64,000 nucleotides of DNA from positions 1 through 64,000 of the IMG/VR virus record IMGVR_UViG_3300025120_000017; one strand, 5' to 3'. The position numbers and the translations under genes were made by a program. This document shows positions 713-63,669 of this stretch, one piece after another. The notes beneath the pieces were generated by a model. That model ran no database searches, had not been told where the DNA came from, and saw only the letters and a program-made list of their open reading frames with translations. The DNA is from a virus. Position 1 is the first letter of the stretch; each line of letters begins with the position of its first letter.

Positions 713-1318
713 ATGAAAAGTCTTAATTATTTTCTAAAAGAGTCAAGCGGTGACATATTAAAAACCAAAAGAGATAAGTGGGTTAAGTTTGATCCAAAGA
801 AATTATCTGACACAGAAAAAGAAGAACTTAGTAAAGAATTTATAGATCTTATACAAACTGCATATGCACCTATCGGAGGTCATGTTAAATTTACAACAGC
901 TGATGATGTATTTAGCGATAGCTCAATAGAATTTTGGGAAGTAATTGACTTACATGGAACAAATGATGCCGATGTTATAGTTTTTGGTAAAGAAGGTAAG
1001 TTTGGTATTAAGTATACTGGAGTAGGCCATGATGGTGAAAAGGATAGTAAAAGAACATACCTAAACAGTAAAGCAAAAACACTCTCAATGCCTGGTTACT
1101 ATAATGAAGTATCTGGAAAGATTGCGGAAATTATGCTAGGTAAATATAAAGTACCTGCGGTCACTAGTGAAGAAGCTGTTAAGAAAGTTCTTAAGAAAGA
1201 TATTACATGGCATGGTAAACATCCTGATGGTAAAACACCTGGAGATGGTTGGTACAGCAGAAAGATTGCTGGTGGAAATCATACTAAAATATTATTAGGA
1301 AAACCAAAGGGAGTTTAG
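713..1318 (+). CDS. putative capsid-internal protein (CTS-like N-terminus)
   Basis: Starts MKSLNYFLKES; AATAAATA at 685-692 upstream. Confidence 0.6.
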   Translation: MKSLNYFLKESSGDILKTKRDKWVKFDPKKLSDTEKEELSKEFIDLIQTAYAPIGGHVKFTTADDVFSDSSIEFWEVIDLHGTNDADVIVFGKEGKFGIKYTGVGHDGEKDSKRTYLNSKAKTLSMPGYYNEVSGKIAEIMLGKYKVPAVTSEEAVKKVLKKDITWHGKHPDGKTPGDGWYSRKIAGGNHTKILLGKPKGV

Positions 1319-1791
1319 AGATTCCCTTTTTTTAACTTCATTACATATTTTTCAAAAACGTTGAAAGGTGTTCTGTGTCCAATAGGTTCTCTATGTATTT
1401 TAAACTTATTCATTCCTTTATTAATCGACCTCTCTGTTTGGTCTGGTTTTACAACCTTATCAAAGTTACCAAGAACCAAAGTATTCATAGGATATCTTGA
1501 CCCGGTTTTATCAATTTTAGGTTCTATGCTTCTTCCTTGTAATGCAGGATTGAATAGTAATGTAGGGATTCCCATCTTCTTGCCTAAATTATATGCAAAC
1601 CATCCACCCATTGAGCTTCCTATAATATAGTTAGGCCTAAACTTAATAAGATCATTATATATTTTATTCCATATATCTGGCTCACTATAATCAATAACAG
1701 GATCATACACTCTATTAAAGTTCTTTTTTAAAAAAGTGTTTTTACGTCCAATGCCATCAGACTCCAATCCATGCAAGTAAGCAATGTTCAT
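1315..1791 (-). CDS. alpha/beta hydrolase, YqiA-like esterase
   Basis: YLHGLES oxyanion segment, GSSMGG nucleophile elbow, D-x-V-V and GH near the C-terminus. Confidence 0.8.
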   Translation of the reverse strand: MNIAYLHGLESDGIGRKNTFLKKNFNRVYDPVIDYSEPDIWNKIYNDLIKFRPNYIIGSSMGGWFAYNLGKKMGIPTLLFNPALQGRSIEPKIDKTGSRYPMNTLVLGNFDKVVKPDQTERSINKGMNKFKIHREPIGHRTPFNVFEKYVMKLKKGNL

Positions 1792-1929
1792 AATTATAAT
1801 TATTTTCTATATTTAATCATTATCATTAACATCAGCATTATCATAATTTGATAAAACATACTTGGTCAGCACTCCTAAAATGGTTGTAGCTATGAATAGT
1901 CCGCCTATCATACCCATTCTTTTGCATTC

Positions 1930-2187
1930 TTATTTTTTTACTATCTTGGTGTGGTGTAGAGAGTTTCCTAGATTATACAATTCTTTTATAGAATTATTAC
2001 TATTGCTATCTATTATTATCTTTAACGCATCAATTAGCTCATGCGTTTCAAATATTAAGATATCTTCAATATTTTTATTTAGAATATCTCTAAGAAATTC
2101 TAAATCTTCTATTGAAAGTCTACTTATCTCTAGTAGATTACTTAGCTTAATCGTTATTTTCAGTAGCCTCTTCTTCAGCATCAGCAT
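1930..2187 (-). CDS. hypothetical protein
   Basis: 85-aa ORF, start uncertain. Confidence 0.4.
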   Translation of the reverse strand: MLMLKKRLLKITIKLSNLLEISRLSIEDLEFLRDILNKNIEDILIFETHELIDALKIIIDSNSNNSIKELYNLGNSLHHTKIVKK

Positions 2188-2581
2188 CAGTATTTAGTTC
2201 TACGTCTGTTAATGCGTCTGGTGTCTCTATCCAATCAAGAGGTTTAAGATTAGGATTCTTTCTAAGAATTTCAACAGGGATTCCTGTTTTATCTGATAAT
2301 TCCTTTAATTCTAATTCCTTGTTTTTTTCTGCTAATCTTGCGGCTGATTTAGCCTTACGCTCTTTTGCGTGGCTATACCCACCTGCAACAGCTGCAGTTA
2401 AACCTGGATCAGTTTCTCTTTCTTTATACTTAATTTTCTTTTGGTTTTCTGTCAAGCATTGGTCAACTGCCGTGACGTCTTTAATACCTTTTCTTTCTTT
2501 GTAATTAGCATTTTTAGCTTCTCTCATCATGTTGTCTAATGCAACATCGCCTTTATGCCTTCCTTGATAACCTTTACCCAT
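2147..2581 (-). CDS. hypothetical protein (probably early)
   Basis: 144-aa ORF with acidic tail, preceded by a TATATTTG promoter box. Confidence 0.65.
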   Translation of the reverse strand: MGKGYQGRHKGDVALDNMMREAKNANYKERKGIKDVTAVDQCLTENQKKIKYKERETDPGLTAAVAGGYSHAKERKAKSAARLAEKNKELELKELSDKTGIPVEILRKNPNLKPLDWIETPDALTDVELNTDADAEEEATENND

Positions 2582-2612
2582 AGTTGTTTAATTTTTTTGT
2601 TTATGTTTTAAA

Positions 2613-2631
2613 TAGTACAAATCAAATATAA
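2613..2631 (-). promoter_or_regulatory. putative early promoter, Bacteroidota -7 box
   Basis: Minus-strand TATATTTG (2623-2630) followed by nnTTGTACTA, the same context as the ligase promoter at 10813-10830. Confidence 0.6.
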
Positions 2632-3297: not shown

Positions 3298-3579
3298 ATG
3301 AAAAACTTAAACGAATTTTTAAACGAAGCAAGTAAGATGGATAGAAAAACATTTAATGCTGCTGTTATAGAAATTATACAACAATTACCAAAAAATATTA
3401 TAAAAACTAAAACACAATTCAATAACTTAAAAAGAGAACTGGAAGATATATATGACAGCGGTGACATTAATACCAGAGAGGATATTGATGATAACATAGA
3501 ATTTATTTTAGGAAACCATATAGTCCGCCAAAAAGTTTTAAATGAATTTTTAAACGAGTCTGAAAACTGGAATAAATAA
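3298..3579 (+). CDS. putative capsid-internal protein
   Basis: Starts MKNLNEFLNEA; motif repeated near the C-terminus (VLNEFLNES). Confidence 0.65.
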   Translation: MKNLNEFLNEASKMDRKTFNAAVIEIIQQLPKNIIKTKTQFNNLKRELEDIYDSGDINTREDIDDNIEFILGNHIVRQKVLNEFLNESENWNK

Positions 3580-3616: not shown

Positions 3617-4339
3617 ATGAGAGATTTAAATGAATTTATAAACGAGGCTAAAAAAGGAAGAGCCTGGTCTGGAAAGATTAATCAAATAGATGGACTTATG
3701 TCATGGCTATATGATAAAGACATTTTAGGAAAAGGTGAAAAGAATAAGAAAGATTCAATATTTAGACAATATTATAGATATTATAATGATGGTGATTTTC
3801 CGCGTGCTCTTTCTAGTAAAGGAATAGGTAAATATAACCATCCTGATCAGATTGAAAATGCTCTTGAGGAATTGCTTGATGATTTTATTAAAAAGATATT
3901 AACGAAGTATCTTCCTAAGATTAATAGAACAGAGTTTAGATATGACCAAGCATTGTCAGAATTAAAATCTCTTAAAGGAGCAATAGATGATGATAACTGG
4001 CACGGAGTTACTAATTATTGGGGTAAGAGAACTAAAGTTGATAGCCCAGAATTTAATAAATTATTAAGCACTCTTGAAAAGGAATATGTTTCATATAAGA
4101 AATCTGTTGATGATCATATGAAAACCTTAGATCTTTCTAAATATGGAGAGTATTCATTTGAACAGCCTTCATCTAATCACTCAATTAAATCAAATAGAGA
4201 AAAGATGAAAGGAAAGGGTGATTGGCCAAAAAATCTTGAAAAAGGTTATCAGAATCTTGAAGATATTACCAGAGAAATGGGATATAAAGTAAATGATGTT
4301 ATTGTATTTACACAGAGAGCAAAAGAATTATTAGAATAA
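3617..4339 (+). CDS. putative capsid-internal protein
   Basis: Starts MRDLNEFINEA; AATAAATA at 3571-3578. Confidence 0.65.
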   Translation: MRDLNEFINEAKKGRAWSGKINQIDGLMSWLYDKDILGKGEKNKKDSIFRQYYRYYNDGDFPRALSSKGIGKYNHPDQIENALEELLDDFIKKILTKYLPKINRTEFRYDQALSELKSLKGAIDDDNWHGVTNYWGKRTKVDSPEFNKLLSTLEKEYVSYKKSVDDHMKTLDLSKYGEYSFEQPSSNHSIKSNREKMKGKGDWPKNLEKGYQNLEDITREMGYKVNDVIVFTQRAKELLE

Positions 4340-4702: not shown

Positions 4703-5233
4703 TTAGCTTATGAAAATTCTTTTAATACTATTTGCTTGATTAGGCATTGATTTGATTAAAGATTTAATTACTTTATTCTTATCTGATTTTGATAGCTTAT
4801 TAAATTCTTTAATCTTTTCATTATTAGATTCTGTTGCTTTTTTATATTGTGATCCACTATCTATATAATCTGTAGTGAAATCATAGCTTAATAGGCTTCT
4901 TAAAACCTTTTCATATGGAGATAAGAGCTTATCAGCAAAGTAATTACTTATTTCATATTTACTTGACTTGCGCTTATTTAGGTAAAATTCCCATTCATAT
5001 CTATATGAACCTACTTTATACATATGAACTACGTCTTTACCTATAACTATCTTAAACTTAATTCCTTTATCAGAAGATTCGTCAGATATGCTATCAATGT
5101 CTTTTTTACCATTAGGTAATGCAGGATTTATACTAATTAATGCATCTTCTAATAAATCTTCAGGAGTTCCAAATTTAGATTTAGAGTTTTTATAATCTTT
5201 ATATGATTGATAAAATTCGTTTAAGTACTTCAT
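4703..5233 (-). CDS. putative capsid-internal protein
   Basis: Starts MKYLNEF; ATGA-coupled to the upstream tagged gene. Confidence 0.55.
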   Translation of the reverse strand: MKYLNEFYQSYKDYKNSKSKFGTPEDLLEDALISINPALPNGKKDIDSISDESSDKGIKFKIVIGKDVVHMYKVGSYRYEWEFYLNKRKSSKYEISNYFADKLLSPYEKVLRSLLSYDFTTDYIDSGSQYKKATESNNEKIKEFNKLSKSDKNKVIKSLIKSMPNQANSIKRIFIS

Positions 5234-5616
5234 ACTTTAATGATTTTTTGATTTCGACCTACTCTAAATTCAGCTCCTCTATATAAAGTAATAACAACAA
5301 ATGATAGTTCATTTCCTTTCTTTTCCATTATTCCTACAACTGTTAGTCCATCGCCTTCTCTTTGCAAAATAACCCTATCTTTGTTAATATCTGTAGTGTC
5401 ATTAACTAAATCTCTTATGAGTATTTCAGTTGCCTTGCTTATGATAGAATTAACTTCTTTAAATGTAACAGGTTCATATGAAGAATTTCCTTGCTCATCT
5501 TTTCTATTTAGTCTTTTAATTGCATGTGATGTTGACTCTATATCAATATCAAACTTAATCTTTCTAGATATATGACCTTCAGCTTTTTCATTCATTATTT
5601 GTTTATAACTCTTCAT
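5230..5616 (-). CDS. putative capsid-internal protein, possible BECR-fold RNase-like
   Basis: Starts MKSYKQIMNE; TSHAIKRLNR helix and terminal VVITLY strand; AATAAATA at 5622-5629. Confidence 0.5.
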   Translation of the reverse strand: MKSYKQIMNEKAEGHISRKIKFDIDIESTSHAIKRLNRKDEQGNSSYEPVTFKEVNSIISKATEILIRDLVNDTTDINKDRVILQREGDGLTVVGIMEKKGNELSFVVITLYRGAEFRVGRNQKIIKV

Positions 5617-7254: not shown

Positions 7255-7554
7255 TTAAAAGAAAGGATTATCTATTAAAGATTCAAAACGTCTATCTGCT
7301 GATGTAATCATGTCATCAAGAGCTGAAAAACTTAAAGGACACTCAAACCACTCTCCTTGTATTTTGTACTCTTTATAGTATCTTTTAAGATATGCTTCTA
7401 TTTTTGAATAGTGCTTTACTTCTCTTTCATAATATAATTTAATAACATCATCATTACCAGTCTGTAAAGCCTTTAATCTCTTTAACGGATTTTTTGAAAA
7501 TCCTATCTTAAACCTATCACGCTCTTCATTATATATTATGTAAATGCTTTTCAT
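7255..7554 (-). CDS. GIY-YIG family protein (T5orf172-like)
   Basis: IYII...FKIGFSKNPLKRLKALQTGN...E...GEWF. Confidence 0.85.
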   Translation of the reverse strand: MKSIYIIYNEERDRFKIGFSKNPLKRLKALQTGNDDVIKLYYEREVKHYSKIEAYLKRYYKEYKIQGEWFECPLSFSALDDMITSADRRFESLIDNPFF

Positions 7555-8079: not shown

Positions 8080-9069
8080 TTATAAAGGTGATAATGATGA
8101 CTTATATTCTTTAGGATATTCGTTTTTCATATCTTTCCTATGCTTATTTTGTATATCTGTAAGTTCTTTATTAACATCATTTGACATTTTTGCATTATAT
8201 GCCATTTTTAGCCATGCTTCATATAGAACTTTAAAATGTGATGGGCCTATCCCTGGAGCTCCATTAATTTCAGGAACCCATAACTCACCATCATTATCAA
8301 GCATTAGGTCAATATTATAAAAATCTAATTTAACTTTGGTTTCTAATTGCTTTTGAATCTTTTTTATTTTATCCATGTATGGAAATTTATCCATATCTTG
8401 GTCAATATAAATTAAATCTATTTTTTCTTCAGCGTCTTTTTCACCAACTGATTTATCATTTTGTGTATTTGTTATTCTCTCAGCAATTAAAAGAATTTTG
8501 CCATTCATGATAAATGCTCTAAATTCTCTATCAAGATCTTTAGCTTCGCACCAAATATCAAATTCTAAATCAGATTTTTTAGCATCTTCATATGAATCAA
8601 ATTTTTCAATCCCCTGTGCGCTAAATCCTTCAGCAGGTTTAGCAATAATAGGTAATGTAAGATCTTCAATATCATCTAATGAATATACGGTTTTAGGAAT
8701 ACATTCACAAGTATCACCAAGCTCTTTTGAAAATACTTTCTTATCTGCGCTTATTGCATAATCATCTATTTTGTTAAAGATAACAGCATCATCAGATTCA
8801 ATAAAGTCATTAGGAGTAGATGTAAAATTTAAAATAGGATATTCATATGATATTTTATTTTTCCTATTTTCTGGAACATCATCATCAGTATTATAATTGC
8901 TTTCTTTTTTAATAAGAACTAGCCTAATGTATTTTTCATAAAGGCGTTTCATTGCTTTCTTTGTAAAGTCTTCTTCTTTTGAGGTAAGTCCTATGTTACC
9001 TCTCATTATAATTTGCATTGGCATATTATATGAAACTAATTCATTTATGAAATACTTTAAACTTTTCAT
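8080..9069 (-). CDS. ATP-grasp (RimK-like) ligase with CTS-like N-terminus
   Basis: DK, IPKT, PIIAKPAEGFSAQGI, EFRAF, IDLM, EINGAPG; starts MKSLKYFINE. Confidence 0.8.
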   Translation of the reverse strand: MKSLKYFINELVSYNMPMQIIMRGNIGLTSKEEDFTKKAMKRLYEKYIRLVLIKKESNYNTDDDVPENRKNKISYEYPILNFTSTPNDFIESDDAVIFNKIDDYAISADKKVFSKELGDTCECIPKTVYSLDDIEDLTLPIIAKPAEGFSAQGIEKFDSYEDAKKSDLEFDIWCEAKDLDREFRAFIMNGKILLIAERITNTQNDKSVGEKDAEEKIDLIYIDQDMDKFPYMDKIKKIQKQLETKVKLDFYNIDLMLDNDGELWVPEINGAPGIGPSHFKVLYEAWLKMAYNAKMSNDVNKELTDIQNKHRKDMKNEYPKEYKSSLSPL

Positions 9070-37641: not shown

Positions 37642-39327
37642 TTATGCCCAGTATCCATCAACTAAATCGGAAACTCCGAATGTTAAGTACATTGTTTCTG
37701 GGTGGTGACCTGCTCTAACTAATGCATATCTAGATTTGATAGCAATTTTTGGAGCCATAGTACCTTCAGCAATTGTCTCAACAGTATCAGCCATAATATA
37801 AGGCATGAATACTAAACCAGGAGTTTGACCATCACCTTTTCTACCAATAGCAATTCTTGTATCTCCCCATTCCATGTTAGGATCAACATAGATAGCAAGA
37901 CCAGCAAGATTACCAATTGGGTAAAGTGCGCCAGCAACTTGGTTTATTGTATTAGCGATTGGTGCAGCAATAAATCCAGCACAGTCTTGTAAACCTGAAG
38001 CAGTTTGAGCAGAACATACTGCAAACGTAGCAGGTCCTCTTCTTCCTCTAACAGAAACCATATTTGATGCAGCAAGAATTCTTGACATCAATCTTCTCTG
38101 TCTAGTTGAAAGGTTTTCAGCACCTGTGTTAACTGCATCAACTTGAGTAACTGAAGTACCTGCGCCAAAATACATAAATGATGGAGTTGAAACCTGAGCT
38201 TCTGTACCTACAGTTAATGTTGCAGCAGTAGCACCTAATACTAAGTGAAGTGATACACCAGATGTTGCAGTGATGTTAGCGTGATTAATTTTACCTAGGT
38301 CAAAAATGTTTCCTAAGATATCCTTATTCACGTTTTGAGTTAATTCATTTGCTAAGATTTGGTTTACTTGAGCAACAGCATCAATACCAAACTGCTTTAA
38401 ATCCTGAACTTGCTCTCTTGTTACAGCTGCAGCAGCTTGAACAGTTTTAGCCTCAACAGATTTACTGAATAATGTAATGTTCATTGTATTATCTGGAGTA
38501 GTTTCTCCTTCTAATCTTGACATTGCATCAGTTGAATCATATCGGTTACTTGAGAATCCTTGAATATGATCTTCTACACCTTTTACTAATTCTGCTTTAG
38601 AAATAATCTTTGTTGTAGCACTTGCACCAGTAACAGCAATTGCAGTTCCACCAACAGCAGTGTTAGCAGGAATAGCATCAGCAACTGAGTAATTTACACC
38701 AGCTGAATCAACCAATACTTCTGGCAATTTGAAAATTGCAAATCCATCAATTCTAGACTGACCTAAGAATGTAACAGATAAAGTACCTGTACCTGTTCCA
38801 GCAGGAATAGTATATGCAGTGTTAGCAGCTACACCTGTATAAACATCAAGTTTAGCTTTAATGAAAATTGGAGAATTTTTACCATCTCCAGCAGTTCCTG
38901 CAGGATATAGTGAATTTTGTGGAACATAACCAGCTTTACCACCAGCATAAACAAAATCCATGTAAGAAAGCATTCCAACAGGACCGTTCATTGGGATAAC
39001 AGGTACTAATTCCAATCCAATAGTTTGTGCAGCAACTTGAATTGCTAATGGAAGTAATGAATAAGGAACATCACCTGAACCTGTATCACCAGTACTCCAT
39101 CCATTACCAGGATTTTCAGGTAATGATACAGCACCCATACCATTTACAGATGCTTTATGTGCGAAAAAGTTATTTTCATTTAATGAACTGCTAGCTCTCT
39201 GAGCTTCGTAGTTCTCTTGGATTTGCAATGCTTTAGACATCCATCCAAGTTTGTGTGCAGGTACTTCTCCAACAGTTGATTCTACAACTGGCTTCCAAGT
39301 TTGCATCAATTTTGACTCGTTTAACAT
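37642..39327 (-). CDS. gp23: major capsid protein
   Basis: W.P N-terminus, PMNGPVG, SVEAKT, QDLKQFGIDA, ANEL...NK, VYVD-like IYVDP, FMPY, TMAPKIAIKSRYA. Confidence 0.95.
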   Translation of the reverse strand: MLNESKLMQTWKPVVESTVGEVPAHKLGWMSKALQIQENYEAQRASSSLNENNFFAHKASVNGMGAVSLPENPGNGWSTGDTGSGDVPYSLLPLAIQVAAQTIGLELVPVIPMNGPVGMLSYMDFVYAGGKAGYVPQNSLYPAGTAGDGKNSPIFIKAKLDVYTGVAANTAYTIPAGTGTGTLSVTFLGQSRIDGFAIFKLPEVLVDSAGVNYSVADAIPANTAVGGTAIAVTGASATTKIISKAELVKGVEDHIQGFSSNRYDSTDAMSRLEGETTPDNTMNITLFSKSVEAKTVQAAAAVTREQVQDLKQFGIDAVAQVNQILANELTQNVNKDILGNIFDLGKINHANITATSGVSLHLVLGATAATLTVGTEAQVSTPSFMYFGAGTSVTQVDAVNTGAENLSTRQRRLMSRILAASNMVSVRGRRGPATFAVCSAQTASGLQDCAGFIAAPIANTINQVAGALYPIGNLAGLAIYVDPNMEWGDTRIAIGRKGDGQTPGLVFMPYIMADTVETIAEGTMAPKIAIKSRYALVRAGHHPETMYLTFGVSDLVDGYWA

Positions 39328-39344: not shown

Positions 39345-40979
39345 TTAATGATTTGTTTTGAAGTTTTTATTATAGCCTTCAACAATTCTTAGTCTTCTAG
39401 CTGCTATTGCATTTTCTACTTCCTCAGCAGTTTTTTGCACTGGCATCTTTGAAGATTCTTTAATCATTTCAATTGTAGTGTTAGCAAATGTTGCATTCCA
39501 AAATTCTGTAACAGAACTTTCAGTTAGAAATTCACAAATTGTAGCTCTTTTAACAATTGATGATTTTTTAGATTCAGATAATGCTTCCCATAATTCTGTG
39601 TATTTTCCTGGCATCATTGATTTCCAGAAAGGTTCCTCAGTTTTATTAAACTCATTTTCCTCTTTTACTAATTCTTGTTTCTCTTCAGCTTTTTGCTTCT
39701 TAGCATCATCGATAATAGAATCAATTTTTTTATATAATCCAGTTATATATGTTTCAGATAAAGAAACATCAACTTTCTTTTTACGTTTTATTGGATTTTC
39801 TGTAAGTGCGCCTTCTTCTAATTTTGTTACAACATCAGTTGCTTCATCAGACCACTTCTCAATCCCAGTAACAGTTTCAGTAACATGTTCAGACCAATCT
39901 TCGATTCCTGATACAGTTTCAGTAACATGCTCAGACCAATTTTCGATTCCTGATACTGTAGTAGTTGCTTCATCGGACCAATCTTCGATTGCAGTAACAG
40001 TTTCAGTAACATGTTCAGACCAATCTTCGATTCCTGATACAGTTTCAGTAACATGCTCAGACCAATTTTCGATTCCTGATACAGTTTCAGTAACATGCTC
40101 AGACCAATTTTCGATTCCTGTTAGTTTATCTTCAAGAACTTTAATTCTATCAGATTCTGATTTAATTGTAGTGAACTCTTCAACTACATGATTAGACCAA
40201 TCCTCAATACCTTTAATCTTATCATTAATTAAATTTATAGATTCCTGTAATACATTACTATTGATATTATCAGCAATTTCATCATTTTGCTTAATAATTG
40301 CATTTTGTGCTTTCTGTAATTTATCAAGGTTTTCTTTAAGAGAATCAATAGTTTCTTTAGTGTATTTTGTAAATCCGTTAAGATCATCTTCAGATATAAA
40401 CTTCTGGTTATCTATTACAGGCTTCTTAGATAATTTAGATTCTGCAACTTCATACATAAAAAAGTTTGAAGATTTTGCATTTTCAATACCATAAGATTCG
40501 TTAACTGTATTTAATACTGCATTTTCAAATCCAGGGTCTGCAACTAAATCATATGTAAATAATTTATGAATCTTTACAGACTTATCTTCAGTTACTGTAC
40601 CTGCAGCTCTTGATGATATATGAAGAGGTACTCCTGCATCAACTAATGCCTTTGCATTTTTTCCTGCATCTGTATCAAGTAACTTTATTCTACCGTATAC
40701 TTTATTATCTTTTTCATCAAACCAAATTTTCTCTATAACATGAGAAGAATTTTTTAAGCTTGTTTCAAAAACCTTAGGGTGATCTAATTCACCTACAGCT
40801 TTACCTTGCTCAACTACCTTTTGTAATTGTGTTAAGTGAGGTAAAAAACCATCCTTAGTATAAATTCGACCATTTCTATTTTCTTCACCTAACTCAGTAA
40901 ACATACCCTCAAGTGTATAAGGATCAGATGTTTTCCCAATACTGGTTGATGATTTTTCTACTAATAATAATTCTTTCAT
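39345..40979 (-). CDS. gp21: prohead protease fused to a scaffold/core domain
   Basis: NRNGRIY, GELDHP, SH, DT..GK, ISSRAAG, YDLVADPGF in the first ~160 aa, then an acidic coiled coil. Confidence 0.92.
   Translation of the reverse strand: MKELLLVEKSSTSIGKTSDPYTLEGMFTELGEENRNGRIYTKDGFLPHLTQLQKVVEQGKAVGELDHPKVFETSLKNSSHVIEKIWFDEKDNKVYGRIKLLDTDAGKNAKALVDAGVPLHISSRAAGTVTEDKSVKIHKLFTYDLVADPGFENAVLNTVNESYGIENAKSSNFFMYEVAESKLSKKPVIDNQKFISEDDLNGFTKYTKETIDSLKENLDKLQKAQNAIIKQNDEIADNINSNVLQESINLINDKIKGIEDWSNHVVEEFTTIKSESDRIKVLEDKLTGIENWSEHVTETVSGIENWSEHVTETVSGIEDWSEHVTETVTAIEDWSDEATTTVSGIENWSEHVTETVSGIEDWSEHVTETVTGIEKWSDEATDVVTKLEEGALTENPIKRKKKVDVSLSETYITGLYKKIDSIIDDAKKQKAEEKQELVKEENEFNKTEEPFWKSMMPGKYTELWEALSESKKSSIVKRATICEFLTESSVTEFWNATFANTTIEMIKESSKMPVQKTAEEVENAIAARRLRIVEGYNKNFKTNH
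39828..40121 (-). repeat. seven tandem 42-bp (14-aa) repeats in the scaffold
   Basis: (S/T)GIE(N/D)WSEHVTETV units with two WSDEAT variants. Confidence 0.92.
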
Positions 40980-41039: not shown

Positions 41040-42686
41040 TTAGAAGCCTAAATCCAAATCTGTATCAGGTTTACTATCTTTTTCGCTATCTTCACCTTCG
41101 TCACCTTCTTTATTATTTGTATTTATTTCTTCATCTTCTTTAGTCTTTAATTGCTCATTAAGGCGGATTTCATCTTCTGTCATTTTTAAATACTTTTTAA
41201 CAAGGTATTCATTAGAGAAGTATCTAACTTCATTACCTTCTTCATCAAAGTCAACTAATGAATCTTTAGCAGATGATATAACATCAATTCTTGCTTTAAA
41301 CATTTCCATTTCTTTAATTTCTTCAAATACATCATATTTAGACCAATCTAAATAAACATCAGCATCAAAGCTTGGGTCATCTTTAAGTTCTATAATATCT
41401 ACTTTAGTTTGTAATATAGTAGGCTTGACTAAAATTTCTTGAAATTGTGCTCGTATTCTACTTAAAAACCGCTCAAAATATATTTCTTCTCTGGTATATC
41501 CTTCAGGTGAAGATTCCCATGTAGGAGATTCATCTTTAATAAATCGGTTTTTAGGTAATTTAGAAACTGATATTAATTTATCTCTAAAGTATTCTAATTG
41601 ACCTGTGTCTGATAAATCAGGACCTTCACCGCCAATGGTTTCAATCTGTGGAGTTCCACTATCACCTTCAGGAACCCAATATTCTTTATTGAACGGTAAC
41701 ATTGGTTTACCATTAACTTCTAATTCACCGCTATCTGTATCAAAATTAATGTTTTCTCTATATGCTTGCATTAAGTTAGATACTGTTTGCTTTGCAATGT
41801 TTTTAGATTTACCTGCTACAGGTATAATAAATTTAGTTTTATATGAAGAATTTACAACAGACCAAATAATTCTTGACTGTTCCATGATTCTTAAAAGATT
41901 AAATGATCTTACAAGCCTTTCAGCATATGAAATTCTACCTTCGCTATTAATTGCAGAATATGATAATAAAATAACCTGGGAATCATTAAGTTCTCTAGCT
42001 TTAATAGGATCATTATCATATTGGATCCAACCTCTTGTACCATCTTTAAACACTTTAGGTGTTAGTGAAATTGGATCAAGTTCTTTAAATCCAATAATAT
42101 TCTTATTAGATCTATCCCAAATAATTTCAAATGATAGGTAACCATCTACTGCATATTTTTTACCATAATGCCATGCAGTATTTTCATTCTTAAAGCCGAA
42201 CATTCTATACATCTTTCTAAAATTAGAAGATAGCGTTTCATTAATTCGTTTTCTTTCTGATTTTTTTATATTAAGATCTTCTTCCCATTTAATATTAGCA
42301 AAGTATTTCTTTGTGTCATACACAATTAGTTCATCTACAAGAATATCTAAAATTTGTTCAATTTCATCTTGTAAACTATATTTTCTTAACTGATCTCTTT
42401 TAGCAGGATATTCCTGGTCAAAAAATGGAATGTTCTTTTTGCTATAAACATCTGCAGCTGCAAAATTATAAAGATCATTTAAGTCAACATTATCTTGGCC
42501 GTATCGAAGAAGTGAATTGTTTTGTTGCCATCCTAATTCATTTTCTAAACTACCAATAGCCTCAGAGTTTAGTATAACAGAATCCTTATAATCAAATCCT
42601 TTCCCTGCAAGATTTCTTAGTGAAGGTGAGTTAAATGTACTCCCTCCAGTTTTTATTGTTTTTAAGCTTTTATATATACTTGCCAT
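41040..42686 (-). CDS. gp20: portal vertex protein
   Basis: EIE..LD..VDE, VDG, ELDP, SYAER...FNLLRIME, KEYWVP, IETIGG, YFRDKL, KLPKNR, TREEIYFERFL.R.R. Confidence 0.95.
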   Translation of the reverse strand: MASIYKSLKTIKTGGSTFNSPSLRNLAGKGFDYKDSVILNSEAIGSLENELGWQQNNSLLRYGQDNVDLNDLYNFAAADVYSKKNIPFFDQEYPAKRDQLRKYSLQDEIEQILDILVDELIVYDTKKYFANIKWEEDLNIKKSERKRINETLSSNFRKMYRMFGFKNENTAWHYGKKYAVDGYLSFEIIWDRSNKNIIGFKELDPISLTPKVFKDGTRGWIQYDNDPIKARELNDSQVILLSYSAINSEGRISYAERLVRSFNLLRIMEQSRIIWSVVNSSYKTKFIIPVAGKSKNIAKQTVSNLMQAYRENINFDTDSGELEVNGKPMLPFNKEYWVPEGDSGTPQIETIGGEGPDLSDTGQLEYFRDKLISVSKLPKNRFIKDESPTWESSPEGYTREEIYFERFLSRIRAQFQEILVKPTILQTKVDIIELKDDPSFDADVYLDWSKYDVFEEIKEMEMFKARIDVISSAKDSLVDFDEEGNEVRYFSNEYLVKKYLKMTEDEIRLNEQLKTKEDEEINTNNKEGDEGEDSEKDSKPDTDLDLGF

Positions 42687-44614: not shown

Positions 44615-44637
44615 TTTTAGAGTATTTGGTATAATTA

Positions 44638-44667
44638 TTAAATCAAATAACTTGGAGAAATGTTTAA
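44638..44667 (-). promoter_or_regulatory. putative middle (ECF) promoter for gp55
   Basis: TTAAACA-N16-GATTTAA. Confidence 0.55.
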
Positions 44668-44693
44668 AAAAACGGGCAGCAAATGCCACCCGT
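44666..44693 (-). terminator. intrinsic terminator
   Basis: ACGGGUGGC-AUUU-GCUGCCCGU followed by a U run; G-U pairs form only on the minus strand. Confidence 0.8.
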
Positions 44694-44721: not shown

Positions 44722-45309
44722 CTATTTTTTATGAGTATATCCTAACTTAGACATTCTCTCATGATCTTCAGGTTTTTCTGCTTTATATGCTTTTCCTGTT
44801 TCAGTATCATACATCATATGGGGTTTAAACTCTTTTTCATTAGTTTCACCTGCAACACAATCATCACAGTCTTCATCATAAGAGCTATGTACATCACATG
44901 ATTCATTAACTACAGATTCAAATATCCATTGAGCAAGTTCCTCACCTTCCATAGATTTCATTACATTAATAATATCCTCAGCTACATAATTAAGCTCATC
45001 CCATATTGCAAATCTACCTAAATCCTCAGTAAAAGTTTCTCCATCAGATACATTAACTGTAAATGTTGTATCAGGTTTACCTTCACTGCCATCTCTACCC
45101 CAATCATGCGCTATCTCTAAAATAAATGAGTTTGCACGTTGTTTGAATTCATATGTAATTGTTCTTGAATACTTATCAACTCTAAATTTAGCTAATTTTA
45201 CTTTATATGGTTTAAGCTGTTTAGCTAATTCCTTGCTAACACCATTCCAAAAACCCTTATCATTATATGATTCTTTTGATTCATTTAAGAACTCTCTATA
45301 TCCTTTCAT
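44722..45309 (-). CDS. putative capsid-internal protein
   Basis: Starts MKGYREFLNES; internal IFES, VNES, TNE; C-terminal FKPHMMYD...GYTH module. Confidence 0.65.
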   Translation of the reverse strand: MKGYREFLNESKESYNDKGFWNGVSKELAKQLKPYKVKLAKFRVDKYSRTITYEFKQRANSFILEIAHDWGRDGSEGKPDTTFTVNVSDGETFTEDLGRFAIWDELNYVAEDIINVMKSMEGEELAQWIFESVVNESCDVHSSYDEDCDDCVAGETNEKEFKPHMMYDTETGKAYKAEKPEDHERMSKLGYTHKK

Positions 45310-45327: not shown

Positions 45328-45903
45328 TTATATGGTTATAGAATTAAGCATTTCTTCTTTTCTAAATACTAAACTTCTTGGATCATCAGAAAGAGCAAAG
45401 GTAGTACTGTACATAGCGCTAAGCTTAGCACCAATATCTTTACCATTTTTATCAGTTACGATATATTCTTTAAATGCATTTGATGCTCTACCAAAGTCTT
45501 TAACAGTATAAACATTAGTGTCTGTGTTAAACTTAGAACCAATCTTTATTTTATTGAAGATTTTAGTTCCAAGCATGCTAATTTTGCTTCCAGATATATC
45601 TGCTTCATTAACATGCTTTGCTTCATCAAGTAATTCTTCTTTATCAGCCAAGAAATCATTCAATGAAATTCTAATTGCATTCAAATCATCTTCTGCTTCA
45701 TCAATTAACCTTTTGTGTTCTGGTACTTTAACATTTCTTGTTTTTGCAAGTACTTCTTCATGACAAGTATCAATTAACCCCCAAATTTCTGAAATTGTAA
45801 TAATATCTTTCTTATCTTTCTTAGAAAAATTCTTAGACTTCTTTATTTGTTTGATAGTTTCTTTGTCGTAATTTTCATTTAAAAAGCTTTTATAACTCTT
45901 CAT
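45328..45903 (-). CDS. putative capsid-internal protein
   Basis: Starts MKSYKSFLNEN; internal LDEA and VNEA. Confidence 0.65.
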   Translation of the reverse strand: MKSYKSFLNENYDKETIKQIKKSKNFSKKDKKDIITISEIWGLIDTCHEEVLAKTRNVKVPEHKRLIDEAEDDLNAIRISLNDFLADKEELLDEAKHVNEADISGSKISMLGTKIFNKIKIGSKFNTDTNVYTVKDFGRASNAFKEYIVTDKNGKDIGAKLSAMYSTTFALSDDPRSLVFRKEEMLNSITI

Positions 45904-45922: not shown

Positions 45923-47602
45923 TTATTCATAAGGAACAAAACTAAATGTCTTATCCATCTTATCTGAGTCATTATCCTTTTCTTCATATGAAATTACATC
46001 GCCAACCATTGCAATAGTGTCAACATAAAAGTTATAAACATCAAGACCTATTGTTTTACTTAAAACTTTCTTTGGTTTATTACCTAAGTATATTGCACCA
46101 TCTTCACGAAATTGATAATCATCTGTATCTTTTCTTAATTTCTTAAAAACGCTCTTAACTGTATCAGATAATGCTTTTGGTACTGATGCAACAAATTCAT
46201 CAAATGACTTATCTTCATTAACTTTTCCTAAAGCTTTCTTTAATTCAATGTTAAGTAATTCAAGAACATTAGTAATTCCATCAACTTCTTCATTTGTATA
46301 CTTTGCTTTAGCTTCTAACAAAAACTTAACCTTTTCAGATTTAGCAATAGTACATTTAGAATCTAAAGATTTAAAAGATTTAGAACAATCTGACTTTTCT
46401 CCTTCGTTCATTGAATCATAAAAAGATAACGCTTCATCAAGTTCAGTAAAGATTGCATCAGAATCTTTAACCATTTTTGATAAATTGATGTCTTTAACCT
46501 TTTTAGCAAATTCTACTGCCTTTAAGTTTACTTTAATACTTTCAAGAACTGGGATAATATCTAACTTATAACCTTTAGCAAAAGATTCCACAATAGAATC
46601 AAAATTGTCTCCGGTAATTTCTGTCATTTCATTTGTTCTTTCAAAAGAATTTACAGTATTAAGTAATATTTTGTTATTTGCTAATTTAATGAAAGATGTT
46701 TTAAAACTTTCGTTAGCCATTTTTATACTCTTTACACATTCAATAACAGCATACTCATTAGCGTTATCAAACATAAACTCAAGTACTGATTTAACATCTT
46801 TGTCAAAATAATCAACAACTCTTGTTACATTAAGAGCAGTTAATATAGATTCTTTCCCAAAGAATTCATTTTCACCGATAAAGAATTTGTTTTCGCCTTC
46901 ATCAGTTGCTACTATTTTAATATAGCCATTTTTTGTTTCCATTACAAATTCACCAGCATCTGCATTAAACATAGATAATGCTCTAAGTCCATAATTAAAT
47001 TTACCAGAAACTTTACCTTCAAATTTCTTTAGACTTGTTAGTGATGAGTTGGTTTCGTAATTTATTCCATTTAAGTTAAAAACATAACCACTTTCAGTAA
47101 TCATTACTGGTGATACATGTTCTTTTTCAACAATTGCTTTAACAGAGTTGCTTACCGCAAATTCCACCTTTTCATAATTTTCTAAAAATACTCTTAAAGA
47201 TGGTATAAATTTAAAAGCTTTTAATTTATGTAAGTTTTCTTTAATCTTAGATTCCTTCATAGGAACTAATTCATTAAGAGTGTCAATTGCAGACTGATAA
47301 GTTGCTCTATGATTACTTGAATCTAATGAGTTAAGAATCTGTTCTAATTGTACACCTACTTGATTTTCATTGATAAACTTAGAGTAATCATTGATGAATC
47401 CATCAACTTCTGAAATCCAATTGTATGCATTAAGAGTGTTCATAAAAGAACCGAATAATCCAGGATTAACACCTTTCTTAAATTCATATATACCTTTTGA
47501 GCAAATACTATTAGCTTCAGCATGATCTTTAACAGATTCATTAAGAGTTTCTAATTTTTCAATTAAGTTAAATTTTTCTTTGATATTGATTTTCATTTCC
47601 AA
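45923..47602 (-). CDS. large late protein, possible head core component
   Basis: AATAAATA at 47618-47625; many xNE/xxES sites (LNES, INEN, ITES, ANES, VNED). Confidence 0.5.
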   Translation of the reverse strand: MEMKINIKEKFNLIEKLETLNESVKDHAEANSICSKGIYEFKKGVNPGLFGSFMNTLNAYNWISEVDGFINDYSKFINENQVGVQLEQILNSLDSSNHRATYQSAIDTLNELVPMKESKIKENLHKLKAFKFIPSLRVFLENYEKVEFAVSNSVKAIVEKEHVSPVMITESGYVFNLNGINYETNSSLTSLKKFEGKVSGKFNYGLRALSMFNADAGEFVMETKNGYIKIVATDEGENKFFIGENEFFGKESILTALNVTRVVDYFDKDVKSVLEFMFDNANEYAVIECVKSIKMANESFKTSFIKLANNKILLNTVNSFERTNEMTEITGDNFDSIVESFAKGYKLDIIPVLESIKVNLKAVEFAKKVKDINLSKMVKDSDAIFTELDEALSFYDSMNEGEKSDCSKSFKSLDSKCTIAKSEKVKFLLEAKAKYTNEEVDGITNVLELLNIELKKALGKVNEDKSFDEFVASVPKALSDTVKSVFKKLRKDTDDYQFREDGAIYLGNKPKKVLSKTIGLDVYNFYVDTIAMVGDVISYEEKDNDSDKMDKTFSFVPYE

Positions 47603-56303: not shown

Positions 56304-56333
56304 TTTAATACTAATTATGTTACATTTGTTTAA
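56304..56333 (-). promoter_or_regulatory. putative middle (ECF) promoter inside the split polymerase locus
   Basis: TTAAACA-N16-TATTAAA upstream of clamp and gp43B. Confidence 0.6.
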
Positions 56334-59051: not shown

Positions 59052-59636
59052 ATGAAAACTAGAACAGACTTATTAGAATTTATAATAAGTGAAAAAAAAC
59101 CAAAAAAATATCTTGAGATTGGAATACAACAGGGATTCAATTTTGATACAATAAAAGTACCTTATAAAGTAGGTGTTGAACCTTTTCCTAGGAGAGTTCA
59201 AGATAATGTACTAACTCTTAAATCAGATGATTTTTTTAAAAGTGATAATCCTGAATATAAGGGGTTTGATTTAATTTTTATAGATGGGCTACATACTGAA
59301 GATCAAACATGGAGAGATTTGCTTAATTCATTAGACCGTTTGAATCATGGAGGTATAATTGTAATGCATGATGCATTGCCTCATAATTTAAAATACACTA
59401 CTATGTCATGGTGTGGAACTTCATATAAAGCAATAATGAAAGCAGCACAGACACCTGGATTAATTGTTAAAACCTGGGAGCAAGATCATGGATGTGCAGT
59501 GATTGTTAAAGAAAGTAAGAATGATTTATATGTATCTACAATCACTACAGACTTTGAAGATCTTTGGAAAGATAATGCAGCTATTGTAGGTAAATCTAAT
59601 ACTGAGGAAATCATTAACTTTATTAAATCTTTATAA
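59052..59636 (+). CDS. class I SAM-dependent methyltransferase (Methyltransf_24-like)
   Basis: YLEIG, SDDFF, FDLIFIDGLH, GGIIVMHD. Confidence 0.88.
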   Translation: MKTRTDLLEFIISEKKPKKYLEIGIQQGFNFDTIKVPYKVGVEPFPRRVQDNVLTLKSDDFFKSDNPEYKGFDLIFIDGLHTEDQTWRDLLNSLDRLNHGGIIVMHDALPHNLKYTTMSWCGTSYKAIMKAAQTPGLIVKTWEQDHGCAVIVKESKNDLYVSTITTDFEDLWKDNAAIVGKSNTEEIINFIKSL

Positions 59637-60195: not shown

Positions 60196-60780
60196 ATGAA
60201 AAACAAGATTTTAATAACCGGTACAGGTAGAAGCGGTACAACTATTCTTGTAAAATTGTTATCATTACTAGGATTAGATACAGGATACCAAAACCTAACA
60301 AGTGATGAAATAGAACAGTATATAAATCAAAATAGCAGAGGAGGTCTTGAAATCTATTTAGATCCAGATAATGAAAATTATCCATTAATATGTAAAGCAC
60401 CTCAATTTTATAATAGAATACCTGAATTATCTAAGAAGTACAAAATTAAGAAAGTATTTGTACCTATGAGAGATTTAGAAATAACAGCAAAATCTAGAGC
60501 AAAGCATGGAGTAAGTCCAGGCGGGTTATGGAATGCAAGTGATGTAAACAGCCAAATGAATCATAATGCTAAAGTAGTTTATCAAATAGCAATAGATTGT
60601 GCATCAAATGACATACCTTTAGATTTTATAGACTTTGATAGATTTACAAGCGATAGCTTATATGCATATAATGTTTATAGTAGATTTTGTGAATTAGCAT
60701 CTGATAATAAACATGACTTTACATCATTCTTAAACATTTATAAAAGTATAATAGATCATAGTAAAATAACAACTAAATGA
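60196..60780 (+). CDS. sulfotransferase-like P-loop protein
   Basis: ITGTGRSGTT (5'-PSB-like), K.P, MRD......S (3'-PB-like). Confidence 0.65.
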   Translation: MKNKILITGTGRSGTTILVKLLSLLGLDTGYQNLTSDEIEQYINQNSRGGLEIYLDPDNENYPLICKAPQFYNRIPELSKKYKIKKVFVPMRDLEITAKSRAKHGVSPGGLWNASDVNSQMNHNAKVVYQIAIDCASNDIPLDFIDFDRFTSDSLYAYNVYSRFCELASDNKHDFTSFLNIYKSIIDHSKITTK

Positions 60781-61511
60781 AAGAAGTAGACATTGTAATT
60801 ATAAGTAATGCAAAAGATGGAGCTCTTTTAAATGAAACTCAGAGATGTATTGAATCTCTTTATGAATCAGAAGATGCATTTATTATACAATTTAATGTAT
60901 TTGTGGTTGAGAGCAATAAAGATGTTAATTATGATACATATTATAATGTAAAAACTATTTACACTGAATTACCTTTTGGTTATCATAGATACTTAAATAT
61001 TGGTAGAAAAGCAGGAAATGCTGAATATGTGGTTCTTTGTAATAATGATTTAACATTTGATAAGAATTGGGCATCAATCGCAATTGATGTAATGAAAAAG
61101 AGAAATATATGGAGTGCAGGATGCTGTAACCCAAATAAAAAAAATCATATATCATATATTGAATCTGGTAAAGAATATGAAGATGGTTGGGCAGTATCAA
61201 ATCATATCACGGGATGGTGTATATTCCAAAAGCGAGAAATATATGAACATATAGGAGATCTTGATGAAGATTTTGAATTTTGGTATTGTGATAATGATTA
61301 TTCAAGAACTTTACAAGAACATTTATTTTATCATACTCTTATAATTGGCTCAAGAGTATTTCATCATAATGGTAATTTAGGAGTTACTGTAAAAACCGAA
61401 GAAGATGAAGATAGAAAAGCCTACCTTACATCAGGTGGTGAAAAAACATATCAAAACAAGTGGGGTGTTGGAGGTTGGATGACTCTTAAGAAATTAACTA
61501 AAAAAGACTAG
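60777..61511 (+). CDS. GT2 glycosyltransferase
   Basis: VDIVIIS, VVES, LN.G, LCNND, GWC, LDE.F..WYCDND, V.H. Confidence 0.88.
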   Translation: MKEVDIVIISNAKDGALLNETQRCIESLYESEDAFIIQFNVFVVESNKDVNYDTYYNVKTIYTELPFGYHRYLNIGRKAGNAEYVVLCNNDLTFDKNWASIAIDVMKKRNIWSAGCCNPNKKNHISYIESGKEYEDGWAVSNHITGWCIFQKREIYEHIGDLDEDFEFWYCDNDYSRTLQEHLFYHTLIIGSRVFHHNGNLGVTVKTEEDEDRKAYLTSGGEKTYQNKWGVGGWMTLKKLTKKD

Positions 61512-61530
61512 AAATAATCCTAGTCTTTTT
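61501..61530. terminator. bidirectional terminator
   Basis: AAAAAGACTAG...CTAGTCTTTTT between convergent genes. Confidence 0.8.
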
Positions 61531-61531
61531 A

Positions 61532-62197
61532 TTATTTTTTGTCTACATAATGTGGAAGTCCTTTTTCCTTAGTCTTTGCAAACTTTCTTAACGTTTTTTC
61601 AGGAAGCTCAGAAATTTTAATAATTTCTTCAGCATATTCAGGTTCTAATTCTTCTTTTGTTATATTGCCTCTCTTATATTGAAGTGCAATAGCAAATAAC
61701 CTTCGCTGTGCTTTAGAATCAGCTCTCTCAAGCAAAGAATCTAAATTTTCCATAACTTCTATGCCAGTTTTAGATTCAATAAAATCTTTAACCATTTTAT
61801 AAAACTCTTCTCTATCATCAGAGTTTTTAAGTAGTTTAGCAGCGTCTCTTAATTTACTTTTAAGTATAGTAAACATCATTCCCATTTTTTCTGAAACTTC
61901 ATCTAGTGTATCTGATACACCTTCGGTTAAAAACACAACACTATCATTAGATGAATTATCTAACTTAAGTCTATATTTCTTAACAGCAGAATCAATGACT
62001 TTTTGAATGTCTGGGTATTCAGCGCCAGCTTTAACCAATTCATCTATACTTATTATGAGAGTATCTTTTTTATTACTATCATCTATGTATATTTCAAATC
62101 CTTGGGTAAACTTTCCTAACTTTTTTTCTATAGTTTTTTTAGCATTTTCCAAAGATTCATTAATATTCACGGAATAAAAATTATCAAGATCTTTCAT
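61532..62197 (-). CDS. putative capsid-internal protein with C-terminal DUF3008-like module
   Basis: MKDLDNFY...INES; C-terminal SKAQRR..A.AL..KRG...LRKFAKTKEKGLP. Confidence 0.6.
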   Translation of the reverse strand: MKDLDNFYSVNINESLENAKKTIEKKLGKFTQGFEIYIDDSNKKDTLIISIDELVKAGAEYPDIQKVIDSAVKKYRLKLDNSSNDSVVFLTEGVSDTLDEVSEKMGMMFTILKSKLRDAAKLLKNSDDREEFYKMVKDFIESKTGIEVMENLDSLLERADSKAQRRLFAIALQYKRGNITKEELEPEYAEEIIKISELPEKTLRKFAKTKEKGLPHYVDKK

Positions 62198-62206
62198 TTA
62201 CTAATA

Positions 62207-62464
62207 TTATTTTTTTACAACCTTTGCAATAACTTCTTTATTACCAGCTACTATTGCTTTATGTTCTGATCTATTAATACTATATGACTTTCCGTCAATT
62301 ATAACATTTTTTTGGTTAAGAGATTCAACTTTTAAATCACCAGAAGATTTAGCAGGTTCAGGAATTACTGTTTTAGATTCTTCTTTAGAACCTTCAGTAG
62401 TTTCAACATTCTTTAACTTCTCAACAGCCTCGTCTAAAGTTTTTTCAGTTTTCTTTTTAGCCAT
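62207..62464 (-). CDS. hypothetical protein
   Basis: 85-aa Lys/Glu-rich ORF. Confidence 0.6.
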   Translation of the reverse strand: MAKKKTEKTLDEAVEKLKNVETTEGSKEESKTVIPEPAKSSGDLKVESLNQKNVIIDGKSYSINRSEHKAIVAGNKEVIAKVVKK

Positions 62465-62475
62465 AACGTGTATTT

Positions 62476-63669
62476 TTATTTTTTGTTTTTAAATTTTCGC
62501 CAATCACTAAAACTATAATAGTTTTCATTTATAGTTTCTTTAGCAATCTTTGAATGTATTAGCCTTACATAATTATTTATATACTTTTTCATATTTATAT
62601 CTATAATTGGAGTAATTTTTTTACGCTCTTTTCTAAATGATGAAAATAGTATTTTATAAATATCTGCAAGATTTGGGTTATTATTAATAATATCTTGTAT
62701 TTTTTTATTCTTTATAAATGATGTATTAAGTTTAAACTCAGGCATTAAAGCAAATGTAGGTTTCTTTAAATCAAAGTCTTCTATAAAAATAGAATTATCA
62801 TCTATGAACATTGATATTAATGTACTTAATAAATCTATATATCTTTCATCAGGACTACTTCCTATTGCATTTACCTTTGTCATTGAATCAGTTTCACCAA
62901 GCCATTCAATGAACTTATATATCAATAATCCTATTTCATCTGATGAAGATTTATTAACTTTTTTATGTAATGATAGTTGATGAAATATCGGATCTATAGT
63001 TTTTGCTGTGTAAACTTTATCATTGTTGCTAAACTCAAATATAAAACCTTCAATAGATTTGTCAATGTCTCCATTTAATGTAGTTTTCTTTAATCTAGGA
63101 TTTAAAATTTTAATAATATGTCGTGTAAAACTATTTGTGTTAAAACTAATCATTAAATCAGACTTATCAGTTTTTATAAAATTCAAAATCTTTTCTTTTT
63201 GTAATTCGCTTAACTCTCCATTAAAATACACTTTAGGTGTAGATGTTTTAAGAAGTTTTGACCACTTAAGAAGTGTTTTAGTGTCATTTATAATAGAATT
63301 ATCATCTTTATCTTCTAATCCTATTAGATGTGTTAATATAAGTCCATTCTTAGGAATATTTTCATATATAACATTAGTAGGCTTATTATTATAAAAATAT
63401 TCAAAAAAGAAGAATACTTCATCAGGAATTTTTGATAAATCTAATGAATTTATATGAGCAATAGGCTTTTCATATAGAGATGTTATAGTTCTTTGTATTT
63501 TATTAAGAGGATATCTCTTATCTCTAGCAAAAAATATTAATTCATTGTTGCTTTTCTTAAATCCAAATTTAGTTCCAGTAAGTTTTTCAGATACTTTTAC
63601 ATTTGAATTAAGAAGTTGCTTCAGAAAGTCTTCACCTAGTTCGTTATAGAAATCTTTTATTTCCTTCAT
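62476..63669 (-). CDS. ATP-dependent ligase-fold nucleotidyltransferase (RNA-ligase-like) with CTS-like N-terminus
   Basis: SEKLTG (motif I), FFEY (III), IEGFIF (IV), AKTID (V); starts MKEIKDFYNE. Confidence 0.6.
   Translation of the reverse strand: MKEIKDFYNELGEDFLKQLLNSNVKVSEKLTGTKFGFKKSNNELIFFARDKRYPLNKIQRTITSLYEKPIAHINSLDLSKIPDEVFFFFEYFYNNKPTNVIYENIPKNGLILTHLIGLEDKDDNSIINDTKTLLKWSKLLKTSTPKVYFNGELSELQKEKILNFIKTDKSDLMISFNTNSFTRHIIKILNPRLKKTTLNGDIDKSIEGFIFEFSNNDKVYTAKTIDPIFHQLSLHKKVNKSSSDEIGLLIYKFIEWLGETDSMTKVNAIGSSPDERYIDLLSTLISMFIDDNSIFIEDFDLKKPTFALMPEFKLNTSFIKNKKIQDIINNNPNLADIYKILFSSFRKERKKITPIIDINMKKYINNYVRLIHSKIAKETINENYYSFSDWRKFKNKK

Follow-up and report, generated by a model that had tools for sequence, protein, structure and literature searches.

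In phage T4, the internal proteins IPII and IPIII carry a ten-residue N-terminal leader, the capsid targeting sequence (CTS), in front of unrelated bodies (Mullaney & Black, 1996; reviewed in PMC9026906 and PMC3012670); in the T4 record both proteins begin MKTYQEFIAE. For IPIII, residues 4 and 7 are the main determinants of targeting and residues 8 and 10 those of processing, and an Asp at position 10 stops cutting but leaves targeting intact (PMC9026906). The head protease that makes the cut, gp21, acts after I/L-x-E (PMC12991175), and it has been suggested in review that T4-like phages may use the CTS for loading varied proteins (PMC9026906). Here, a 64-kb stretch (positions 1 to 64,000, hereafter the window) of the 76,225-bp viral record IMGVR_UViG_3300025120_000017, a fragment of an uncultured jumbo phage with a CheckV completeness of ~27%, is examined for a set of genes whose products begin with a common decapeptide of consensus M-K-S-[LY]-K-x-F-[LI]-N-E (hereafter the tag). 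This shared N-terminus is probably a CTS of the T4 type that would direct the loading and cutting of a cargo larger than that of T4 and in part enzymatic. The present system extends a mechanism already described for T4 rather than introducing another; what is new is the scale, the enzymes among the cargo, the conservation of four positions in distant jumbo phages, and the linkers that resemble protease sites.

The resemblance to the leaders of IPII and IPIII covers the ten-residue length, the N-terminal location, the character of positions 4, 7, 8, and 10, the unrelated bodies behind the leader, the protease family, and the head gene set. MKGYREFLNE, one of the tags, departs from MKTYQEFIAE at four positions. 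There are also differences. The leaders here have Asn at position 9 where T4 has Ala, and some are extended or lack Glu10. T4 has three internal proteins and the present contig at least 13 tag bearers in 76 kb. The bodies are not homologues of IPI-III (searches of PHROGs and Pfam assigned no mature part of any tagged gene to an internal-protein family) and many are acidic. Unlike T4 gp21, the protease is fused to a putative scaffold, and the cargo is known from genes alone. T4 Alt, a head-packaged ADP-ribosyltransferase that is injected after gp21 has removed pieces from both of its ends (PMC9026906), is a precedent for an injected host-modifying enzyme, whereas the present set has an ATP-grasp ligase and GNAT-fold proteins instead, behind leaders of the IPIII type. 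In phiKZ-like giant phages such as SPN3US, a protease related to T4 gp21 matures a variety of ejection and inner-body proteins of the head, which then enter the host (PMC5694885; PMC7411985; PMC10052503). A further likeness is to the polyvalent proteins of phages and conjugative elements (Iyer, Burroughs, Aravind and co-workers, as cited in PMC7824862), which are multi-domain, mix-and-match effectors that enter with the DNA; each of these is one very large protein, and none is known to have a leader of the T4 type, whereas here small modules stand behind a putative CTS and are joined by protease-type linkers. A short decapeptide is common to the proteins of the present contig. By contrast, the propeptides of phiKZ-like phages are long and are not known to share a short address, and their cut motif is S/A/G-x-E.

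All of the ten tagged N-termini that an earlier note on this DNA had listed read as quoted, at the starts given there. Counting over the 99 non-overlapping genes of the whole 76,225-bp contig, to which all gene counts below refer, a strict pattern anchored at the first residue (M[KR].[LYI]..[FI][LIMY][NK]E) matches the start of 9 genes, where 0.001 (overall amino-acid composition) to 0.003 (N-terminal composition) would be expected, and a looser pattern matches 13. The strict pattern is found in none of 176 overlapping or spurious open reading frames (ORFs) and at 2 of 458 internal Met residues, and one of those two is in fact the initiator Met of the gene that ends at 63761. A chance or compositional effect of an AT-rich genome with frequent Met-Lys starts, such as the 34 genes that begin MK, is thereby refuted for the set as a whole, and as a general explanation it has next to no probability. 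It does apply to borderline members, since a native N-terminus can happen to resemble the tag, examples being the RNA-ligase-like protein of 62476-63669 and the GIY-YIG-like protein of 7255-7554. The proteins had also been called otherwise unrelated, and BLASTP of 15 bodies stripped of their first 14 residues detected no similarity with one exception, a 66-residue module of 88% identity that is common to two tagged genes beyond the window. Further, the claim that replisome genes lack the tag holds: it is absent from the replication and structural genes of the contig, and none of 29 annotated genes (16 for replication, nucleotide metabolism, transcription, or lysis, 10 for the virion, and 3-4 others) is tagged compared with 13 of the 70 others (Fisher p 0.009).

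The tags of the contig read M-[KR]-x-[LYI]-x-x-[FI]-[LIVM]-N-E, and the positions conserved among them are 4, 7, 8, and 10, those that matter in T4. Position 4 is L, Y, or I and position 7 is F or I in all 14 tags. The aliphatic-x-Glu at positions 8-10 is canonical in 10 of 15 leaders, and two further leaders have [VI]-N-E within six residues downstream. This conservation extends to orthologues. In the family of 713-1318 (79 clusters of 28-80% identity), positions 4, 7, 8, and 10 are kept in 74, 70, 75, and 72 clusters, respectively, where kept means hydrophobic at 4 and at 7, aliphatic at 8, and Glu at 10. In the family of the ATP-grasp gene 8080-9069, nearly all 67 clusters have a tag-like leader and the same positions are kept in 66, 66, 62, and 55 of them. 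The remainder of the leader varies by lineage in both sequence and length (MKSLKYFLNE, MKHIKLFENFINE, MIKLVDLLLE, MRLSELKNIIRE) while the bodies stay alignable, as would suit an address recognized by head machinery that differs between lineages.

This pattern bears on the possibility that the leader is a mere substrate or regulatory propeptide of the head protease that switches cytoplasmic proteins late, with no packaging involved. Such a role would agree with the aliphatic-x-Glu cleavage-type motif being the most conserved element, and non-head substrates are possible for gp21-type proteases (PMC12991175). Yet positions 4 and 7, whose part in T4 is in targeting rather than in cleavage, are conserved as strongly as 8 and 10, and T4 gp21 is active within the prohead, after which it destroys itself (PMC12991175). 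A propeptide without packaging is accordingly considered improbable.

Still less probable is a leader with some other shared purpose, whether as a peptide recognized by a modifying enzyme, as an element of translation initiation, or as a junction of recombination with no function in the protein. Four leaders that begin MKSYKSF form a sub-family with 87-97% DNA identity over the first 30 nt, as a cassette junction might, and an upstream element is common to four tagged genes. Across the tag codons, however, identity at third positions is 0.50, near the background of 0.42, and that at first plus second positions is 0.69; selection therefore acts on the peptide and not on the DNA. Moreover, the four residues persist in orthologues of other lineages (40-80% identity) despite different DNA, the 76-kb record (again, ~27% complete) encodes no radical-SAM enzyme, and near-identity to the tested T4 CTS would have to be a coincidence. 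The MKSYKSF sub-family itself may have spread by recombination.

The machinery that a T4-type CTS would require is encoded on the same contig. The gene at 39345..40979 (minus strand) encodes a gp21/S77 prohead protease (Pfam Peptidase_S77, 44.7 bits; PHROG head maturation protease) followed by a long, coiled, scaffold-like tail. His85 and Ser140 of T4 gp21, mutation of which inactivates that enzyme (PMC12991175), align with a His and a Ser of this protein. The coiled tail is 370 residues long and includes six tandem repeats of 42 nt (14 residues; 39871..40120, minus strand), most of which end in V-T-E; it resembles a scaffold joined to the protease, and each repeat could be a site of cutting. 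A fusion of S77 protease and scaffold is also found in Tenacibaculum phage pT24 (a 531-residue frame) and in two huge metagenomic phages (among them LR756500, 635 residues). The adjacent gene at 37642..39327 (minus strand) encodes a gp23-type major capsid protein (Pfam Gp23, 127.6 bits) with an N-terminal propeptide in which the signature WKPVVE is kept (WKPLLE in T4). It has L-N-E at residues 2-4 and S-L-N-E at residues 53-56, and the latter adjoins the alignment column of the T4 gp23 cut at F-L-T-E65, so that one motif marks both the predicted site of capsid maturation and the end of the tag. A gp20-type portal (Pfam Portal_T4, 199.8 bits) is encoded at 41040..42686 (minus strand). Additionally, the 559-residue protein of 45923..47602 (minus strand), located between a tagged pair and a gp15-like gene, contains KLETLNE followed by S at residues 14-20 and is a candidate processed head protein; searches of PHROG and Pfam gave it no family match. 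Besides the S77 head protease, the window encodes a protease of the ClpP family at 26968-27528 (Pfam CLP_protease, 94.9 bits).

With respect to expression, most tagged genes had been said to follow TAAATA late-type motifs or to lie in late operons. TAAATA does occur 20-35 nt upstream of ~22 genes, among them those for sheath, tube, baseplate, and five tagged proteins, but four other tagged genes have a different element, ATAAAA(0-2)TAAAA, so that the claim stands in part. This second element has 11 copies in the contig, 5 of which lie 21-23 nt before a start codon, namely those of the four tagged genes and of the protease-scaffold gene; the copy of 44722-45309 is ATAAAATAAAA at -22 and that of 45328-45903 is at -23. 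These upstream motifs suggest co-expression of the tagged genes with the head genes. Two sigma-like genes are located at 17736-18395 and 43784-44689; for one, the match is a phage RNA polymerase sigma factor, and the other, a weak gp55 (late sigma)-like match, adjoins the head genes.

The cargo includes predicted enzymes. The product of 8080..9069 (minus strand), which begins MKSLKYFINE followed by L, is predicted from Pfam matches (R2K_3, 27.6 bits with a cut-off of 26.3; Dala_Dala_lig_C, 26.2 with a cut-off of 24) to be an ATP-grasp (RimK-type/R2K) ligase; enzymes of the R2K type have been proposed as modifiers of host proteins in phage-host conflicts (PMC4431377; PMC7824862). The product of 713..1318 (plus strand; MKSLNYFLKE followed by S) has a body with a GNAT-like fold. 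Its AlphaFold2 model has a predicted local distance difference test score (pLDDT) of 90, with residues 1-9 below 50 and unstructured ahead of the confident fold, and the best rows of its structural matches are all GNAT acetyltransferases (top Z 8.9 with 5isv, 135 residues, 4.0 A). A G-x-G-H-D-G loop is conserved in this family; a Pfam search with the protein and a comparison of the family profile with PDB sequences gave no match. A gene past the window end that begins MKRLKKFINQ encodes a GNAT protein according to Pfam. Among the tagged proteins, PHROGs and Pfam were informative only for these two Pfam assignments (ATP-grasp and, past the window, GNAT), a DUF3008, and a weak DUF7403, and a search of the ESM Atlas with 713-1318 and 3617-4339 gave no usable match. 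The rest of the set has no assignable function, and the isoelectric points (pI) of the tagged proteins range from 4.5 to 9.3.

Several tagged proteins are built from modules. The gene at 44722..45309 (minus strand; MKGYREFLNE followed by S), which adjoins the head genes, has two modules, the second of which, FKPHMMYD, is widespread and is preceded by an internal ESVVNE/S linker. This module occurs in 401 viral contigs behind many differing leaders, and many of these leaders are themselves CTS-like. Overall, tagged bodies contain 10 internal [LIVM]NE[SAG] sites compared with 1.9 expected from untagged proteins (p 3.5e-5), mostly in ES-V-N-E/S linkers that separate modules. These features also invite the main rival explanation, in which some or all of the tagged proteins, at a minimum those that are acidic and multi-module, are prohead-core material like T4 gp22, gp67, and gp68; after targeting they would be cut to peptides during maturation instead of reaching the host as working effectors. 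Several tagged proteins are indeed acidic (pI 4.5-5.4) and have multiple internal [VI]-N-E/S sites, two such genes adjoin the head genes, and T4 core proteins are also annotated as gp21 substrates. Set against this, a scaffold role for the ATP-grasp and GNAT folds is not obvious and each is conserved as an entire domain (67 and 79 clusters, respectively), the protease gene itself already has a scaffold-like tail, and the modules between the linkers are conserved and widely exchanged, which fits functional units. A core role is thus judged unlikely, although it has a stronger claim than the other alternatives, above all for the acidic multi-module members.

The remaining tagged genes are as follows. 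Near the start of the window, the small gene at 3298..3579 (plus strand; MKNLNEFLNE followed by A) encodes a 93-residue protein in which a copy of the tag is repeated at the C-terminal end (VLNEFLNESENWNK; KVLNEFLNESENWNK). This copy may be what is left of the leader of a downstream cassette that has since disappeared, in agreement with recombination at tags. The gene at 3617..4339 (plus strand; MRDLNEFINE followed by A) is the one with the weak DUF7403 match and has two relatives in viral contigs. On the minus strand, 4703..5233 has a partial tag, MKYLNEFYQS, that fits at positions 4 and 7 but has no aliphatic-x-Glu at 8-10, and 5230..5616 encodes a small basic protein (MKSYKQIMNE followed by K). 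Elsewhere, also on the minus strand, the product of 45328..45903 (MKSYKSFLNE followed by N) is encoded next to the head genes and has an internal KHVNE/A site, and that of 61532..62197 has an extended leader, MKDLDNFYSVNINE, that ends in INE at residues 12-14 and is followed by S, together with a C-terminal DUF3008. The ORF at 63761..64000 (minus strand) is the C-terminal part of a tagged multi-module gene that starts, with MKSYKSFLNE, 744 nt past the window end. Counted in addition to the ten N-termini listed earlier, five tagged genes have their starts just past that end; these begin MKSYKSFLNE, MKSYKRFINK, MKSYKSFVNE, MRSLGQIILE, and MKRLKKFINQ.

One of the ten N-termini listed earlier, that of 62476..63669 (minus strand; MKEIKDFYNE), is set aside as a likely false positive, because it is probably the native N-terminus of an RNA ligase. 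The protein has an RNA-ligase fold, with T4 Rnl2 as the best Foldseek match (E 3e-6, probability 1.0), and EKLTG at residues 28-32 contains the motif I lysine, with Glu28 invariant; the Pfam RNA_ligase match is below threshold. Tyr8 and Gly12 are invariant even in relatives of ~30% identity (613-676 residues) that start MAGIKYLTDIYEKKG, residues 1-10 of the model have a pLDDT of 77, and the helix of residues 4-11 continues into the domain. T4 Rnl2 starts MFKKYSSLENHYN. Likewise set aside is 7255-7554 (99 residues, start MKSIYIIYNEERDRFKIGFS, MKSIYIIYNE), which fits the looser pattern only and looks GIY-YIG-like by eye. The earlier proposal of a much larger, partly enzymatic tagged repertoire is otherwise sustained by sequence evidence at the functional positions, in the gp21-family protease, at the capsid maturation site, in the conservation among orthologues, and in the association with S77-encoding phages described below. 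A DNA ligase gene at 9408-10799 begins MIKNILNEIAS, in which L-N-E is off the four-position rule and probably native; such a start calls for caution in scans by motif alone.

The tag is not confined to this contig. A scan of IMG/VR with M-K-x-Y-x-x-F-[LIVM]-N-E gave at least 109 distinct matches. Among the matches listed, 63% are at ORF starts compared with 12.6% of control ATGAAR sites at the same loci (p 4e-35), and some contigs carry arrays of four. Such arrays (L049 3821-5053, L076 3760-5046, and L085 4139-5396, all uncultured viral contigs of 23-24% G+C) consist of four consecutive genes of 71-146 residues each that start MKKY[NK]QFINE, and they resemble the internal-protein loci of T-even phages. 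Of the near-complete records in which the tag is truly N-terminal, 7 of 8 encode an S77 protease, and neither of two complete 77-kb records in which the match is internal does so; this association is only indicative since the long contigs were chosen by the author. In pT24, 7 of 321 ORFs fit the rule for positions 4, 7, 8, and 10 compared with 2 of 1618 internal Met positions; the variant there is M-K-x-I-S-x-Y-[LIV]-x-E, and one of the seven is a homologue of 713-1318. In the literature searched, CTS-like leaders are mentioned for T-even relatives only and no report of a pT24 virion proteome was found. The breadth of the CTS seen here and in IMG/VR appears not to have been described in that literature.

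Several observations weigh against a T4-type CTS. The canonical aliphatic-x-Glu at positions 8-10 is missing from 5 of 15 leaders, and those with no cleavage motif are 4703-5233, the out-of-window gene that ends its leader in INQ, and the doubtful 62476-63669 (Tyr at position 8). In contrast to the T4 internal proteins, many members of the cargo are acidic (pI 4.5-5.8). The putative late timing of the tagged genes is read from upstream motifs only. The choice of long contigs in the S77 comparison favours T4-like phages. Finally, the strict pattern has no match in LR756500, the nearest record by capsid protein; the tag sequence is therefore lineage-specific.

If the tag does act as a CTS, the course of events can be outlined from the T4 model. 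Late in infection, the leader would bind the tagged protein to the core of the assembling prohead, with positions 4 and 7, aromatic or aliphatic, as the address. After closure of the shell, the gp21-family protease would cut behind the aliphatic-x-Glu of positions 8-10, mostly [LIV]-N-E, and also at similar linkers inside the tagged proteins. The freed mature proteins and modules would remain in the head with the DNA and would leave with it at the next infection. This cargo would be mixed, with possible modifiers of host proteins (the ATP-grasp ligase and the GNAT-fold proteins), as in the case of T4 Alt, small basic proteins like the T4 internal proteins, and acidic multi-module proteins. Injection and early function of the tagged proteins, including any part in host takeover or anti-defence, are held with less confidence than their loading and cutting. 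A broader and more tentative proposal, which we regard as possible but rather less than even in its chances, is that the four-position address is a conserved, lineage-tunable capsid-loading code that extends from T4 to jumbo phages related to Lak and pT24, such that the injected set could be read from sequence; the set here would comprise an ATP-grasp ligase, two GNAT-type proteins, and multi-module proteins cut into separate effectors at the linkers of exchanged modules.

Should the tag work as in T4, protein delivery before any phage expression would be predictable from sequence, also in uncultured jumbo phages. Proteins delivered in this way are the earliest means by which a phage takes over its host and counters its defences, and with an ATP-grasp ligase and GNAT-type proteins the cargo here would broaden what is known from T4, where Alt is the one precedent. 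A further use could be the loading of foreign proteins into the capsids of phages other than coliphages, with the tag as the handle.

The window has a G+C content of 29%. A 171,834-bp contig with identical proteins is also on record, and a search of a phage collection for near-identical DNA gave no match. The head genes are of the T4 type (gp23-like, gp21/S77, and gp20, plus gp2-like, gp4-like, and gp15-like genes), the tail genes in the window encode a sheath, a tube, and one baseplate protein, and a T4-style replisome is represented by gp41, gp43 (in two pieces), gp44, gp46/47, UvsX, topoisomerase II, and ligase. The closest record by capsid protein is a 462-kb metagenomic phage (47.6% identity), followed at 30-34% by Lak megaphages, Sphingomonas phage PAU, pT24, and Chryseobacterium phages. 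No trend toward a Shine-Dalgarno signal was detected (6 of 99 genes compared with a background of 8%). A Bacteroidota host is plausible because of this lack of a Shine-Dalgarno signal and because the relatives infect Tenacibaculum, Chryseobacterium, and Prevotella.

Some further features of the window are recorded here. The T4-type DNA polymerase is divided between two ORFs, 56320-57789 (N-terminal half) and 54311-55528 (C-terminal half), which are separated by a 252-residue ORF without a family match (55528-56286). Two glycosyltransferase-like genes and a weak DNA-methyltransferase-like gene are located at 28149-29348, 59052-59636, and 60777-61511. Tandem copies of AAAATGCCA occupy ~23856-23900, immediately 5' of a 964-residue gene at 23901.

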